A stretch of 7,173 nucleotides of DNA from a virus (Duplodnaviria > Heunggongvirae > Uroviricota > Caudoviricetes), in the IMG/VR virus record IMGVR_UViG_2687453466_000006; one strand, given 5' to 3'. Positions 1-7,173 of this stretch are shown here, one piece after another. The position numbers and the translations under genes were made by a program. Each line of letters begins with the position of its first letter. Position 1 is the first letter of the stretch. The notes under the pieces were generated by a model, which saw only the letters and a program-made list of their open reading frames with translations, did not search any database and was not told the DNA's origin.

Positions 1-54
1 CATCCAACCGCAGCATGTTCTTGCTTAAGACGTGCTGCGGCATAATCCCAATGA

Positions 55-798
55 TTACTCCCTGACAGGGTTCGTAGGCCACTCAATATCAGGTGCAGTT
101 GATGTATCAACACGGTTCAGCAACACCCGATATTTTTTCCAGGCTTCCAGCAATGAGGTTTCTTCCTCCGTTGCGATTTCCAGATCTACAGCATCCTGAA
201 GTGGCGCAATATGCTCACTGGCTACCTGCATCAGGCTGTTTTTTGTTTCTTCCGCCTCCCGAATCCGGAACAGTTTTTCTGCTTCTGCATCTTTCACCCA
301 GGCTGTACCGTTCCACTTCTGAAACTCCCCTTCCGGCGATAACCAGGTAACATTTTCCGGTAACGGACCGAGTTCAGAAATAAATAACGCGTCCCCTGAC
401 GCTACGTCATAAACCGTTTTACCCCGATGATCTTCAACGAGATGCCACGATGACTCATCACTGTTGAAAACAGCCACGAAGCCAGCTGGAATAAGGGTGT
501 TGCGCTGCTTATGCTCTATAAAGTAGGCATAAACACCCAGCAGCATTTTGGAATAACCGACACGGGCAGACTTCACCACATTCACCTCACGGATGTAGTC
601 GCTGCCCATCGCATTCATGATGGCCCGCTGAAAGGGCAGTGTTTCCCAGCGCCCTTCCTGGTATGCGGATTCTTTCGGGAGATAGTAATTAGCATCCGCC
701 CATTCAACGGCGGTCTGTGGCTCCGGCCTGAACAGTGAGCGAAGCCCGGCGCGGACAAAATGCCGCAGCCTGTTAACCTGACTGTTCGATATATTCAC
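55..798 (-). CDS. Chimeric prophage-remnant ORF (247 aa): terminase large subunit (lambda gpA-like) N-terminal ~103 aa fused in frame to tail-fibre assembly protein (lambda Tfa-like) C-terminal ~144 aa; probably a pseudogene
   Basis: ORF track 55..798 minus. ATG at 798..796, TAA at 57..55. Residues 1-103 ([18 protein letters not shown]...EHKQRNTLI) match the lambda gpA N-terminus as I remember it; residues 104-247 ([12 protein letters not shown]...[11 protein letters not shown]) match the lambda Tfa C-terminus. Junction at about nt 487-492. The start overlaps the upstream Nu1 gene by 26 nt (773..798), as in lambda Nu1/A. Resembles the adjacent aaaD/tfaD pseudogene pair of K-12 DLP12. Confidence 0.8.
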
Positions 799-1318
799 TC
801 AGCAACCCCGGTATCAGTTCATCCAGCGCGGCTGCTTTGTTCATGGCTTTGATGATATCCCGTTTCAGGAAATCAACATGTCGGTTTTCCAGTTCCGGAA
901 AACGCCGCTGCACCGACAGGGGGATCCCGTCGAGAATACTGGCAATTTCACCTGCGATCCGCGACAGCACGAAAGTACAGAATGCGGTTTCCACCACTTC
1001 AGCGGAGTCTCTGGCATTTTTCAGCTCCTGTGCATCGGCCTGCGCACGCGTAAGTCGATGGCGTTCGTACTCAATAGTCCCTGGCTGGAGATCTGTCTCG
1101 CTGGCCTGCAGCAGTTCTTCAACCTCCCGGCGCAGCTTTTCGTTCTCAATTTCAGCATCCCTTTCGGCATACCATTTTATGACGGCGGCAGAGTCATAAA
1201 GCACCTCATTACCCTTGCCACCGCCTCGCAGAACGGGCATTCCCTGTTCCTGCCAGTTCTGAATGGTACGGATACTCGCACCGAAAATGTCAGCCAGCTG
1301 CTTTTTGTTGACTTCCAT
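773..1318 (-). CDS. nohD: Terminase small subunit, lambda Nu1 homolog (181 aa)
   Basis: ORF track 773..1336 minus begins at a TTG; the first ATG (1318..1316) gives [39 protein letters not shown]..., which I recognise as near-identical to lambda Nu1 including its N-terminal helix-turn-helix region. Sits immediately downstream of a lambda-type cos site. Symbol is by resemblance to K-12 DLP12. Confidence 0.9.
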
Positions 1319-1545
1319 TGCACATTCCACGGACAAAAACAGAGAAAGGAAACGACAGAGGCCAAAAAGCTCGCTTTCAGCACCTGTCGTTTCCTTTCTT
1401 TTCAGGGGGTATTTTAAATAAATACATTAAGTTACGACGAAGAAGAACGGAAACACCTTAAACCGGAAAATTTTCATAAATAGCGAAAACCCGCGAGGTC
1501 GCCGCCCCGTAACCTGTCGGATCGCCGGAAAGGACCCACAAAATG
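1319..1545. other. Lambda-type cos packaging site (cosB with R-site-like motifs, cosN 12-nt cohesive-end sequence at 1496-1507, presumptive cosQ side at about 1508-1545)
   Basis: The reverse complement of 1381-1507 reads GGGCGGCGACCTCGCGGGTTTTCGCTATTTATGAAAATTTTCCGGTTTAAGGTGTTTCCG..., which is the lambda left end with a few substitutions (from memory). CGTTTCC-type motifs at 1348-1358, 1384-1394 and 1449-1457 sit where the lambda R1/R2/R3 Nu1-binding sites lie. Confidence 0.8.
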
Positions 1546-1706
1546 ATAATAATTATCATCTACATGTCACAACGTGCATCTACGCCATCAAACCACGTCA
1601 AATAATCAATTATGACGCAGGTATCGTATTAATTGATCTGCATCAACTTAACGTAAAAACAACTTCAGACAATACAAATCAGCGACACTGAATACGGGGC
1701 AACCTC

Positions 1707-1901
1707 ATGTCAACTAAGAACAGAACCCGCAGAACAACAACCCGCAACATCCGCTTTCCTAACCAAATGATTGAACAAATTAACATCGCTCTTGAGCAAA
1801 AAGGGTCCGGGAATTTCTCAGCCTGGGTCATTGAAGCCTGCCGTCGGAGGCTAACGTCAGAAAAGAGAGCATATACATCAATTAAAAGTGATGAAGAATG
1901 A
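1707..1901 (+). CDS. ylcI: Small conserved prophage protein, YlcI/YnfO-like (DUF3950), 64 aa; possible ribbon-helix-helix fold
   Basis: ATG at 1707 with a GGGG Shine-Dalgarno-like element 7 nt upstream. Basic N-terminus (KNRTRRTTTRN) followed by IRFP...MIEQINIALEQ...FSAWVIEACRRRL, which looks like a strand-helix-helix pattern. Same position relative to cos as in lambda and DLP12. Confidence 0.75.
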   Translation: MSTKNRTRRTTTRNIRFPNQMIEQINIALEQKGSGNFSAWVIEACRRRLTSEKRAYTSIKSDEE

Positions 1902-2065
1902 ACATCCCGCGTTCTTCCCTCCGAACAGGACGATATTGTAAATTCACTTAATTACGAGGGCATTGCAGTAATTGAGTTGCAGTTTTACCACTTTCCTGAC
2001 AGTGACAGACTGCGTGTTGGCTCTGTCACAGGTTAAGTAGTTTGAATGATTAGCAGTTATGGTGA

Positions 2066-2272
2066 TCAGTCAACCACCAGGGAATAATCCTTCATATTAT
2101 TATCGTGCTTCACCAACGCTGCCTCAATTGCCCTGAATGCTTCCAGAGACACCTTATGTTCTATACATGCAATTACAACATCAGGGTAACTCATAGAAAT
2201 GGTGCTATTAAGCATATTTTTTACACGAATCAGATCCACGGAGGGATCATCAGCAGATTGTTCTTTATTCAT
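2066..2272 (-). CDS. ybcW: Small prophage protein of unknown function, YbcW-like (68 aa)
   Basis: ATG at 2272..2270 with GGAG 8 nt upstream on the minus strand. Translation [40 protein letters not shown]... is recognised as YbcW-like. Convergent with ylcI and divergent from ybcV. Confidence 0.75.
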
Positions 2273-2557
2273 TTTGTCGCTCCATGCGCTTGCTCTTCAT
2301 CTAGCGGTTAAAATATTACTTCAAATCTTTCTGTATGAAGGTTTGAGCACGTTGGCCTTACATACATCTGTCGGTTGTATTTCCCTCCAGAATGCCAGCA
2401 GGACCGCACTTTGTTACGCAACCAATACTATTAATTGAAAACATTCCTAATATTTGACATAAATCATCAACAAAACACAAAGAGGTCAGACCAGATTGAA
2501 GCGATAAAAACGATAATGCAAACTACGCGCCCTCGTATCACATGGAAGGTTTTACCA

Positions 2558-2968
2558 ATGGCTCAGGTTGCCATTTTTAAAGAAATATTCGATCAAGTGC
2601 GAAAAGATTTAAACTGTGAATTGTTTTATTCTGAACTAAAACGTCACAATGTCTCACATTATATTTACTATCTAGCCACAGATAATATTCACATTGTGTT
2701 AGAAAACGATAACACCGTGTTAATAAAAGGACTTAAAAAGGTTGTAAATGTTAAATTCTCAAGAAATACGCATCTTATAGAAACGTCCTATGATAGGTTG
2801 AAATCAAGAGAAATCACATTTCAGCAATACAGGGAAAATCTTGCTAAAGCAGGAGTTTTCCGATGGATTACAAATATCCACGAACATAAAAGATATTACT
2901 ATACCTTTGATAATTCATTACTATTTACTGAGAGCATTCAGAACACTACACAAATCTTTCCACGCTAA
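2558..2968 (+). CDS. ybcV: Prophage protein of unknown function, YbcV-like (DUF1398 family by recollection), 136 aa
   Basis: The ORF track extends to a TTG at 2435. I call the start at ATG 2558 ([19 protein letters not shown]...), which has GGAAGG 8-9 nt upstream. An in-frame ATG at 2516 has no Shine-Dalgarno element. Confidence 0.75.
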
Positions 2969-3060
2969 ATCATAACGTCCGGTTTCTTCCGTGTCAGCAC
3001 CGGGGTGTTGGCATAATACAATACATGTACGCGCTAAACCCTGTGTGCATCGTTTTTAAT

Positions 3061-3125
3061 TATTCCCGGACACTCCCGCAGAGAAGTTCCCCGTCAGGGC
3101 TGTGGACATAGTTAATCCGGGAATA
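3061..3125. repeat. Pair of perfect 10-bp inverted repeats (TATTCCCGGA / TCCGGGAATA) separated by 45 bp, upstream of bor
   Basis: Arms at 3061-3070 and 3116-3125 by direct inspection. Lies in the 290-bp ybcV-bor intergenic region. Function unknown. Confidence 0.4.
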
Positions 3126-3258
3126 CAATGACGATTCATCGCACCTGGCATACATTAATAAATATTAACAATATGAAATTTCAACTCATTGTTTAGGGTT
3201 TGTTTAATTTTCTACACATACGATTCTGCGAACTTCAAAAAGCATCGGGAATAACACC

Positions 3259-3552
3259 ATGAAAAAAATGCTACTCGCTACTGCGCTGGCCCTGCTTATT
3301 ACAGGATGTGCTCAACAGACATTTACTGTTCAAAACAAACAGACAGCAGTAGCACCAAAGGAAACCATCACCCATCATTTCTTCGTTTCTGGAATTGGGC
3401 AGAAGAAAACTGTCGATGCAGCTAAAATTTGTGGCGGCGCAGAAAATGTTGTTAAAACAGAAACCCAGCAAACATTCGTAAATGGATTGCTCGGTTTTAT
3501 TACTTTAGGCATTTATACTCCGCTGGAAGCGCGTGTGTATTGCTCAAAATAA
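3259..3552 (+). CDS. borD: Bor outer-membrane lipoprotein (serum-resistance moron), 97 aa
   Basis: MKKMLLATALALLITGCAQQ... has a signal peptide with lipobox ITG|C. I recognise it as near-identical to lambda Bor. It is convergent with Rz, which is the lambda arrangement. Confidence 0.95.
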   Translation: MKKMLLATALALLITGCAQQTFTVQNKQTAVAPKETITHHFFVSGIGQKKTVDAAKICGGAENVVKTETQQTFVNGLLGFITLGIYTPLEARVYCSK

Positions 3553-3583
3553 TTGCATGAGTTGCCCATCGATATGGTCAGCT

Positions 3584-4045
3584 CTATCTGCACTGCTCAT
3601 TAATATACTTCTGGGTTCCTTCCAGTTGTTTTTGCATAGTGATCAGCCTCTCTCTGAGGGTGAAATAATCCCGTTCAGCGGTGTCTGCCAGTCGGGGGGA
3701 GGCTGCATTATCCACGCCGGAGGCCGTGGTGGCTTCACGCACTGACTGACAGACTGCTTTGATGTGCAACCGACGACGACCAGCGGCAACATCATCACGC
3801 AGAGCATCATTTTCAGCTTTCGCATCAGCTAACTCCTTCGTGTATTTTGCATCGAGCGCAGCAACATCACGCTGACGCATCTGCATGTCAGTAATTGCCG
3901 CGTTCGCTAGCTTCAGTTCTCTGGCATTTTTGTCGCGCTGGACTTTGTAGGCGATTGCGTTATCACGGTAATGATTGACCGCCCATGACAGGCTGACGAT
4001 GATGCAGATAATCAGAGCGGATATAATCGCGGTTACTCTGCTCAC
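3584..4045 (-). CDS. rzpD: Spanin inner-membrane subunit (i-spanin) Rz, 153 aa
   Basis: Near-identical to lambda Rz ([10 protein letters not shown]...QKYINEQCR), with an N-terminal transmembrane segment. Start is placed at GTG 4045..4043, overlapping the endolysin TGA stop (GTGA), by analogy with the lambda ATGA overlap. An alternative GTG at 4057 would give 157 aa. Confidence 0.85.
3643..3825 (-). CDS. rzoD: Spanin outer-membrane lipoprotein subunit (o-spanin) Rz1, 60 aa, embedded in the +1 frame of Rz
   Basis: ATG at 3825..3823. [24 protein letters not shown]... has lipobox VVG|C and a proline-rich C-terminus ([15 protein letters not shown]), near-identical to lambda Rz1. Lies entirely within Rz in a different frame. 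Confidence 0.85.
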
Positions 4046-4539
4046 TGTTGCCCCCACAAACAGACTTCACGCTCAATCTCACGACGAGTCATCAGGCCTT
4101 TCCATTGCTTACCGCCAGCGTATGTCCAGCGACGCAGCTGATCACATGCGCCTTTGATATCGCCCTGGTTTATTTTGCGAAGAAGCGTCGATGTTCTAAA
4201 ATTGCCAGCACCCACGTTGTAAACGAATGAGTAAAGAGCGCCGCGCGTTGTTTCCGGTATATCGACTTTGATATACGGGTTAATTTGTCTGGCGACAGTG
4301 GCAAGGTCTTTATTCAAGAGTGCTTTGCATTCTGCTTTGGTATACGTTTTACCGAGCATGATGTCTTTTCCGGTGTGTCCGTGACATACAGTCCATACAC
4401 CAACAATATCTTTGTATGGTATGTAGCTGACACCTTCCAGACCATCGTTACCACTTGGGCCAGTGATTAACACTGATGCTATAGCAATTGCTCCGCCACC
4501 AATAGCAGCAGCAACGGCTTTTCGTAATGATGGAGGCAT
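4042..4539 (-). CDS. rrrD: SAR (signal-anchor-release) endolysin, phage 21 R-type lysozyme, 165 aa
   Basis: ATG at 4539..4537. The N-terminus has a Gly/Ala-rich weakly hydrophobic segment ([18 protein letters not shown]) typical of SAR domains. E35, D44 and T50 are present at the catalytic triad positions of T4-lysozyme-like R21 (by recollection). Start overlaps the holin stop by 1 nt (TAATG). Confidence 0.93.
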
Positions 4540-4754
4540 TATTCACCTCTCGCAGCCTTGCGCTTATCTTCTTTAATCTTGAAATAAAGGTTTGTCAGGT
4601 ACGTCAGCAGGCCAAATACCAGGCTACCCAGCACACCTATTGCTGCCCACTGTGAGGGAGTGACTTTATCTAGCAGCTGTAAAAACCAGTACCCGGCACT
4701 ACCTGCTGAGGTGCCATAGGCGACACCCGTTGTTAACTTATCCATGGATTTCAT
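4539..4754 (-). CDS. essD: Class II holin (pinholin, phage 21 S-type), 71 aa with dual start Met1/Met4
   Basis: ATG at 4754..4752 and a second in-frame ATG at 4745..4743 (MKSMDK...), the S21 antiholin/holin dual-start arrangement. Two predicted transmembrane segments and a charged C-terminus ([13 protein letters not shown]). GAGGTGG Shine-Dalgarno-like sequence upstream. Confidence 0.9.
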
Positions 4755-4863
4755 AACCCCACCTCGCAGACAAAGCGGGTGTAAATTGAGGGAATACTAC
4801 GAAACGTAACAGACTCGGAGTCAGTGAATAACTCAGGTATTGGGTTATCAGCTAATATCGAGA

Positions 4864-4899
4864 CTCAAAAAATGGAAAAACCCGCTCGACGGCGGGTTT
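4864..4899 (-). terminator. Putative intrinsic terminator oriented toward the lysis genes (tR'-like)
   Basis: The minus strand reads AAACCCGC-CGTCGA-GCGGGTTT followed by TTCCATTTTTT: an 8-bp stem with a 5-bp GC core, a 6-nt loop and a U-rich tract. On the plus strand no T-tract follows it. Lies about 110 nt upstream of the holin start. Confidence 0.5.
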
Positions 4900-4943
4900 A
4901 AGCTGTGTGACGAAGTAACCACTCTTAACAGCATAACCAATTT

Positions 4944-4957
4944 TTTACGTACGTAAA
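4944..4957. repeat. Perfect 14-bp palindrome TTTACGTACGTAAA, 7 bp from the IS5 left end
   Basis: Self-complementary by direct inspection. Overlaps a weak sigma70-like candidate on the minus strand (TTTACG, 16 nt spacer, TATGCT). Confidence 0.4.
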
Positions 4958-4964
4958 CCACTAA

Positions 4965-4980
4965 GGAAGGTGCGAACAAG
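4965..4980. repeat. IS5 left terminal inverted repeat
   Basis: GGAAGGTGCGAACAAG; matches the right end in inverse orientation at 15 of 16 positions. Confidence 0.85.
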
Positions 4981-4987
4981 TCCCTGA

Positions 4988-6013
<1,026 letters not shown>

Positions 6014-6144
6014 AAACTGGGGATAACGCCTTAAATGGCGAAGAAACGGTCTAAATAGGCTGATTCAAGGCATTTACGGGAGAAAAAAATCGGCTCAAAC
6101 ATGAAGAAATGAAATGACTGAGTCAGCCGAGAAGAATTTCCCCG

Positions 6145-6160
6145 CTTATTCGCACCTTCC
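6145..6160. repeat. IS5 right terminal inverted repeat
   Basis: CTTATTCGCACCTTCC; reverse complement GGAAGGTGCGAATAAG. Confidence 0.85.
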
Positions 6161-7173
6161 TAGGGGATTTACCTGATGTCACTTTTGAAGAGGCCTGCCT
6201 AAGATGGCTTGAGGAAAAAGCTGATAAAAAATCTCTCGATTCAGATAAAAGCCGGATTGAGTTCTGGCTTGAACATTTTGAGGGTATAAGGCTTAAAGAT
6301 ATCTCGGAGGCAAAGATTTACTCTGCTGTAAGCAGAATGCATAACAGAAAGACGAAAGAAATATGGAAACAGAAAGTTCAGGCCGCCATCAGGAAAGGTA
6401 AAGAACTGCCTGTTTATGAACCAAAGCCAGTATCAACTCAGACAAAGGCAAAGCATCTTGCCATGATAAAGGCCATTCTCCGTGCTGCAGAACGCGACTG
6501 GAAGTGGCTGGAAAAAGCGCCTGTCATCAAGATACCAGCGGTCAGAAACAAGCGAGTCAGATGGCTGGAAAAGGAGGAAGCAAAACGCCTTATTGATGAG
6601 TGCCCCGAACCACTGAAATCTGTCGTCAAGTTTGCGCTGGCAACTGGTCTGAGAAAGTCGAACATCATAAATCTGGAATGGCAACAAATCGACATGCAGC
6701 GACGAGTTGCCTGGGTGAATCCAGAAGAGAGCAAATCAAACCGCGCCATTGGTGTGGCGCTGAACGATACCGCCTGTAAAGTGTTGCGTGATCAAATAGG
6801 CAAGCATCACAAATGGGTGTTTGTACATACCAAGGCGGCTAAGCGAGCAGATGGAACATCAACGCCTGCGGTCAGGAAGATGCGCATCGACAGCAAGACA
6901 TCATGGCTATCAGCTTGTCGTCGTGCAGGAATTGAAGATTTCCGTTTCCATGACCTCAGACACACCTGGGCAAGCTGGCTGATTCAGTCAGGCGTCCCAT
7001 TATCAGTGCTTCAGGAAATGGGCGGATGGGAGTCCATAGAAATGGTTCGTAGGTATGCTCACCTTGCGCCTAATCATTTGACAGAGCATGCGAGGAAAAT
7101 AGACGACATTTTTGGTGATAATGTCCCAAATATGTCCCACTCTGAAATTATGGAGGATATAAAGAAGGCGTAA
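6161..7173 (+). pseudogene. Phage-type tyrosine integrase, 5'-truncated by IS5 (N-terminal arm-binding region and start codon missing); longest ATG-initiated ORF is 6337..7173 (278 aa)
   Basis: The reading frame of ORF 6337..7173 stays open upstream to the IS5 boundary (in-frame stop only at 6115-6117, inside IS5), encoding ...[55 protein letters not shown], typical of an integrase core-binding domain, with no in-frame start codon. The C-terminal catalytic domain is intact: TGLRKSN (box I Arg), HDLRHTWAS (HxxR), [15 protein letters not shown] (Trp and catalytic Tyr). TAA at 7171-7173. Confidence 0.85.

Follow-up and report, generated by a model that had tools for sequence, protein, structure and literature searches.

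Phage lambda (NC_001416) provides the closest described parental genes for the feature analyzed here, i.e., A (711-2636), encoding the large terminase subunit gpA, and tfa (orf-194; 21973-22557), encoding the tail fibre assembly protein Tfa. In the large subunits of terminases (TerL), the packaging ATPase occupies the N-terminal domain and an endonuclease the C-terminal one (PMC4856287, PMC7229814), and the C-terminal region of the lambda small subunit (TerS) binds TerL (PMC9611059). The same two parental genes are present in PhiR29_1 (PV340556.1), a phage whose annotated genome is complete and follows the gene order of DLP12, the cryptic lambdoid prophage of Escherichia coli K-12. Within DLP12 itself, the K-12 MG1655 reference (NC_000913.3) contains aaaD (b4634, pseudogene; 581354-581662) and tfaD (b0561, CDS, formerly ybcX; 581534-582097), which lie in the same frame and overlap by 129 nt. 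The PGAP annotation reports two pseudogenes meeting at one junction, namely a terminase large subunit truncated at the C-terminus and a tail fibre assembly protein truncated at the N-terminus. In the literature, tfaD has been used as a locus name, as a target of lambda recombination (PMC545071), in deletion lists, and as a control for antisense transcription that Rho suppresses (PMC5909445); no report of a TfaD protein was found in the papers mentioning tfaD/ybcX.

The stretch of DNA analyzed in this work (7173 bases in total, hereafter the window) is over its whole length 100% identical to the E. coli K-12 DH1/DH5alpha/XL1-Blue/JM109 group, and its positions 1-4964 are 100% identical to MG1655. 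It lies within DLP12, adjoining the tRNA-Arg gene argU, and it is reversed relative to MG1655 (window position x equals MG1655 582152 - x). Both the 100% identity and the position between nohD and ybcY at argU identify the feature of interest as the annotated aaaD/tfaD remnant of DLP12, its sequence, both fragments and the junction all agreeing with MG1655; the feature is therefore already known, and it is the very locus that a preliminary description of the window, made from its sequence, had suspected. The strain studied here, of the DH1/DH5alpha lineage, differs from MG1655 in that quuD is missing, as is the sequence upstream of essD. The present analysis adds the position of the breakpoint at the level of single bases, an intact phage of the parental type, and the recognition that the 187-aa TfaD is a gpA-Tfa hybrid.

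Whereas the MG1655 reference splits the reading frame into a pseudogene and a 187-aa CDS, reading from the inherited GTG gives one open reading frame (ORF) of 247 aa, located at window positions 55-798 on the minus strand (MG1655 581354-582097), with zero internal stops in the ORF listing. The aaaD' fragment (491-798, minus strand) comprises gpA codons 1-102 and 2 further nt, is identical at 308/308 nt to A of both lambda and PhiR29_1, and encodes the N-terminal segment of gpA followed by the first ~56 residues of the packaging ATPase domain. The 'tfaD fragment (55-493, minus strand) comprises Tfa codons 50-194 and the stop codon, with a complete Caudo_TAP domain. At the protein level, residues 1-103 of the chimera are identical at 103/103 positions to gpA of lambda and of PhiR29_1, and residues 103-247 match residues 50-194 of the lambda Tfa at 134/145 positions (92%) and Tfa of PhiR29_1 at 143/145 positions (99%).

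Searching of the Pfam database placed two unrelated families within this one ORF, i.e., GpA_ATPase at aa 47-102 (E-value 4.1e-10; only positions 3-60 of the 247-position model) and Caudo_TAP, the tail fibre assembly family, at aa 125-244 (E-value 4.8e-45; positions 1-130 of 131). As both family matches are strong and the identity to gpA is 100%, a chance resemblance can be ruled out. The preliminary description, which had recognized a single 247-aa ORF built of about 103 gpA-like and 144 Tfa-like residues in one frame, agrees with the ORF listing, the Pfam matches and the alignments: the C-terminal half is indeed Tfa-like, and neither a stop nor a frameshift occurs at the junction. Its claim that both the ATPase and the nuclease domain are lost needs to be divided, since the Pfam scan of the ORF gave no nuclease-domain match, whereas the ATPase domain is truncated and still recognizable. 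In a PDB sequence search, the sole match was TfaMu of phage Mu (5yvq_B), which aligns to the C-terminal 65 aa of the chimera (E-value 1.7e-9) and hence to the Tfa part only, and no matching structure was found for the N-terminal gpA part. The exact 247-aa sequence is present on 395 contigs in the protein collection, where other gene callers report this full version.

The beginning of the ORF retains the parental arrangement, as had been proposed. GTG is the start codon of A in lambda, in PhiR29_1 and in the window alike. Upstream lies nohD (773-1318, minus strand), a homolog of the small terminase gene Nu1 whose product covers positions 1-164 of the 164-position Phage_Nu1 model and differs from lambda Nu1 by 3 residues in 181 aa. 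It ends at 773, and the chimeric ORF starts at 798, which gives an overlap of 26 nt (773-798), equal to that of lambda, in which Nu1 ends at nt 736 and A starts at nt 711. The cos region and the order of the flanking genes are likewise shared with lambda and PhiR29_1. A lambda-type cos region (window 1340-1520) is intact beside nohD and includes the cosN 12-mer GGGCGGCGACCT (1496-1507, minus strand), where the lambda-like late region has its left end; overall, the window and the left 1010 nt of lambda share ~98.6% identity. In contrast to the window, both phages contain the 21.1-21.7 kb between the two breakpoints, with all head and tail genes.

The breakpoint was placed by base-by-base alignment of the window with the A and the tfa regions of lambda and PhiR29_1. 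The A-side parent reads ...ACACCCTTAT followed by CTGG, the tfa-side parent reads ...CCAGATAT followed by TCC, and the window reads ...ACACCCTTATTCCAGC..., so that the deletion junction (491-493, minus strand) consists of 3 bp, TAT, common to both parents, without any filler. Correspondingly, phage matches on the Nu1-A side end at window position 491 and those on the tfa side at position 493. The Ile codon 103 (window 490-492) serves both as codon 103 of gpA and as codon 50 of Tfa, and the protein at the junction reads ...KQRNTLI/PAGFVAVFN..., exactly where the preliminary description had put it. That description had also recommended looking for microhomology at the breakpoint in alignments to lambda A and tfa, and the TAT is what these alignments revealed. 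Microhomology of at least 3 bp has a chance of ~0.05 at a random junction; it fits illegitimate recombination and is typical of it, and it is statistically not decisive.

Lambda A nt 1019-2636 is missing from the window, and the whole deleted segment amounts to 21,672 bp in the coordinates of PhiR29_1 and to 21,100 bp in those of lambda. The gene order of PhiR29_1 is int ... Q, porin, S, R, Rz, bor, ybcV, ybcW, ylcI-like, Nu1, and A, then the head and tail set, and after it lom, stf, tfa, ybcY, a tfa fragment, and ompT. To the left of the junction, K-12 and PhiR29_1 share S-R-Rz-bor-ybcV-ybcW-ylcI-Nu1-A up to PhiR29_1 nt 18276, and the window is 99.2% identical to this phage from upstream of S to this point within A. 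The similarity resumes at nt 39949 within tfa, with 95.3% identity on the tfa side, and K-12 beyond the window continues colinearly with PhiR29_1 through ybcY, a tfaX-like fragment, and ompT at 96-97% identity.

Because PhiR29_1 is colinear on both sides, the scar fits one deletion within the prophage, and a single event of ~21.7 kb in DLP12 probably produced it, as had been suggested from the sequence of the window. None of the results spoke against a deletion scar. Under this reading, an ancestor resembling PhiR29_1 or lambda would have lost ~21.7 kb in one illegitimate recombination between codon 103 of gene A and codon 50 of tfa, at the 3-bp TAT. The event would have removed the rest of A, W, B, C, Nu3, D, E, FI, FII, Z, U, V, G, T, H, M, L, K, I, and J, and further lom, stf, and tfa up to codon 49. 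That both breakpoints fell in the same frame would be a matter of chance (the prior for an in-frame outcome of a random deletion is 1 in 3), and, since they share one frame, the gpA GTG start, overlapped with nohD, would now run into the Tfa frame and give the 247-aa ORF. This offers a base-level reconstruction of the loss of the morphogenetic genes of DLP12, made with the use of its intact relative PhiR29_1.

Two other histories of the junction have to be weighed against a single deletion. The scar might have arisen through several nested deletions, one after another; cryptic prophages decay stepwise, and DLP12 of this strain carries further deletions associated with IS5. We regard such a course as unlikely, given that the junction is flush, has 3 bp of microhomology and neither filler nor any remnant of the intervening genes, and that no intermediate allele was found in 5426 complete genomes, in which the matches either run through the junction or end exactly there; moreover, a stepwise course would alter only the history of the feature and not its nature. 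Far less credible still is a chromosomal rearrangement joining two prophages, i.e., the left arm of DLP12 and a foreign tfa. The presence of several tfa paralogs in K-12 (PMC545071) and the unequal identity to PhiR29_1 (99.2% on the left versus 95.3% on the tfa side) would favor it, whereas the tfa side runs colinearly into ybcY, the tfaX-like fragment, and ompT, as in PhiR29_1, and phages PhiR26_1 and PhiR30_1 match the tfa part at 97.8%, so that the gap in identity between both sides is explained by ordinary lambdoid mosaicism.

The distribution of the junction was determined with a 70-nt probe centred on it, compared with the 5426 complete E. coli genomes, and it was found in 360 of them. 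Its presence in 360 independent complete genomes led us to reject a sequencing or assembly artefact. The 60 carriers listed among the 360 are all named K-12 stocks or K-12-like in genome size and strain origin, and they include MG1655, BW25113, DH5alpha, HB101, MC4100, C600-type recipients, mouse-gut O16:H48 isolates, and the early stock WG1. PJ-T13 (4.9 Mb), the sole genome of atypical size that was inspected, has the DLP12 gene set of K-12 with the same protein accessions and with IS5 in nmpC. Thus, among these 60 of the 360 carriers, there was no sign of the junction outside the K-12 lineage and no evidence of an older or wider spread. All matches in other E. coli and in phages split exactly at window positions 491-493.

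Several peculiarities were seen among these genomes. In some K-12 stocks, IS1 splits the match to window positions 1-1500 in two, and two DNA-packaging-protein features are annotated there; a 113-kb plasmid record contains the aaaD-tfaD junction; and in PSJ-16 a 200-nt junction probe is split across 730 bp. The genomes with the IS1, the plasmid or the split probe are NZ_CP010438-40, NZ_CP009789, and NZ_CP009644, as well as NZ_CP110860.1 and NZ_AP027632.1.

The same K-12 genome contains an independent deletion of a morphogenetic region, located at nohA-stfQ of Qin (NC_000913.3 1634885-1636367; positions 4886-6368 of the respective MG1655 segment), the other lambdoid remnant of K-12 that has a Nu1 homolog. 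As in DLP12, the Qin scar links gene A to the side-tail-fibre region, in frame and from the gpA GTG start. There, lambda-like homology over cos-Nu1-A extends to the third base of A codon 3 (lambda nt 719), after which stf continues from PhiR29_1 nt 38896/7, so the StfQ protein (320 aa) begins with VNI, the start of gpA. Unlike in DLP12, A codon 3 is joined to stf codon ~665 with a 2-nt overlap, only 3 gpA residues are left, tfaQ is of full length, and the C-terminus of nohA is altered. Both scars being in frame (two of two, chance ~1/9) is at best suggestive; no other observation keeps a small probability on selection.

When compared with functional terminases, the chimera shows the N-terminal gpA homology and a start overlapping the small-subunit gene. 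The complete GpA_ATPase domain of 247 model positions is absent from it, only positions 3-60 being matched, and so are the C-terminal endonuclease domain and the portal-binding tail. As a protein without about three-quarters of the ATPase domain, without the nuclease domain and without the portal-binding C-terminus, the predicted product cannot, even if it is made, be a terminase. Since its gpA part breaks off within the ATPase fold, this part is unlikely to form a stable domain. In comparison with the Tfa proteins (lambda Tfa, Mu U), the Caudo_TAP domain is complete, and the protein is not of full length with its own N-terminus and start, Tfa residues 1-49 being replaced by gpA residues 1-102. 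Moreover, the gene does not directly follow a cognate stf, which lies in the deleted segment; its place upstream is taken by nohD and the gpA fragment.

The context for expression was also considered. Transcription of the DLP12 late genes was reported to depend on a Q-type antiterminator, RpoE, and Hha (PMC7918800). In the window, IS5 (4965-6159, plus strand) is located between essD (210 nt off) and a 5'-truncated intD, an arrangement common to DH1, DH5alpha, NEB5-alpha, XL1-Blue, and JM109, and relative to MG1655 deletions are found on both of its flanks. In the numbering of the MG1655 segment L004, in which 12754 equals MG1655 576753, these cover L004 11793-13188 and L004 1830-10591 (~10.2 kb together) and take nmpC, quuD, rusA, ybcK-ybcO, emrE, IS3, and xisD/exoD/renD; the latter one spans from the intD N-terminus to nmpC, including quuD (Q). 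The described fragment with the lysis-cassette promoter (-121 to +650; PMC7918800) maps to L004 12754-~13523 (MG1655 576753-~577522), the forward primer matching exactly and the reverse primer only with indels allowed, hence approximately. Its +1 is located near L004 12875, inside the missing L004 11793-13188. As both quuD and the start site of the lysis cassette are deleted, we infer that the known late-transcription route to nohD and to the chimeric ORF is gone in this strain, and the expression of the ORF is probably low. No excess over chance was found near the ORF for promoter-like sites (3 versus 2.0 expected) or for terminator-like sites (2 versus 2.1 expected), and no promoter-like site was found between IS5 and essD. 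In this last interval, a strong terminator-like hairpin (8-bp stem followed by a T-run) is located at window positions 4878-4899 on the minus strand; it is a candidate late-operon terminator, of the kind through which Q would allow transcription to pass.

Taking these data together, we consider ordinary prophage decay by this deletion highly probable, with the chimera most likely a non-functional, dispensable pseudogene fusion. An alternative would be an expressed, domesticated protein, translated from the gpA start in coupling to nohD and acting either as a decoy that binds, through the gpA N-terminus, NohD or the Nu1 of a superinfecting lambdoid phage, by which packaging would be hindered, or as a residual Tfa chaperone for fibres encoded elsewhere, in which case both in-frame K-12 scars would reflect selection for ongoing translation. 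The intact ORF with its native GTG and its preserved 26-nt overlap with nohD, the complete Caudo_TAP domain, the second in-frame fusion (A'-'stf) in Qin, and the listing of tfaD as a CDS and not as a pseudogene in the current reference annotation are all in line with such a role. In addition, the chimera keeps the extreme N-terminus of gpA, of which the first ~48 residues are the segment that sets the specificity of Nu1 binding. K-12 is, however, the classical permissive host of lambda, and an in-frame outcome is expected once in three deletions (two of two, ~1/9), the gpA part stops within the ATPase fold, the carriers (60 of 360 listed) are all K-12 stocks or derivatives, leaving no detectable time for selection, Q and the late promoter are missing in this strain, and promoter-like sites near the ORF stay within the chance level. 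The reported binding of TerL by the C-terminal region of lambda TerS (PMC9611059) would be compatible with a decoy, and a functional analogy for a host-resident protein of phage origin that could bind a phage small terminase, without any sequence relationship seen to the chimera, is offered by the Rpp proteins of PICIs, which bind TerS, redirect packaging and show that such binding can block phage packaging (PMC6739421). On the other hand, the reduced-genome strain DGF-298 is viable without the whole block containing tfaD, i.e., the region is deletable without noted harm (PMC10652928). On balance, domestication appears very improbable; if the protein were made and bound a small terminase, it would exemplify interference of a prophage remnant with phage packaging.

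For the decayed fusion, the consequences concern mainly annotation, and beyond annotation hygiene its importance is small. The 187-aa reference TfaD (b0561; UniProt TFAD_ECOLI) starts with MNAMGSDY... at the ATG of gpA Met61 (616-618, minus strand), contains 43 gpA residues and reads across the junction. No Shine-Dalgarno-like sequence was seen just upstream of this ATG, and the annotated start is arbitrary, the inherited one being the GTG located 180 nt upstream. At the other end of the ORF, a 45-aa "nucleocapsid protein" annotated by PGAP/RefSeq (WP_071592174.1; window 1-82, minus strand, and past the window start) overlaps the 3' end of the chimera, and its name looks spurious at this locus. 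Furthermore, the ybcV ORF (window 2435-2968, plus strand) has 177 aa when read from TTG, as in PhiR29_1 (534 nt), and K-12 annotations use 136 aa.
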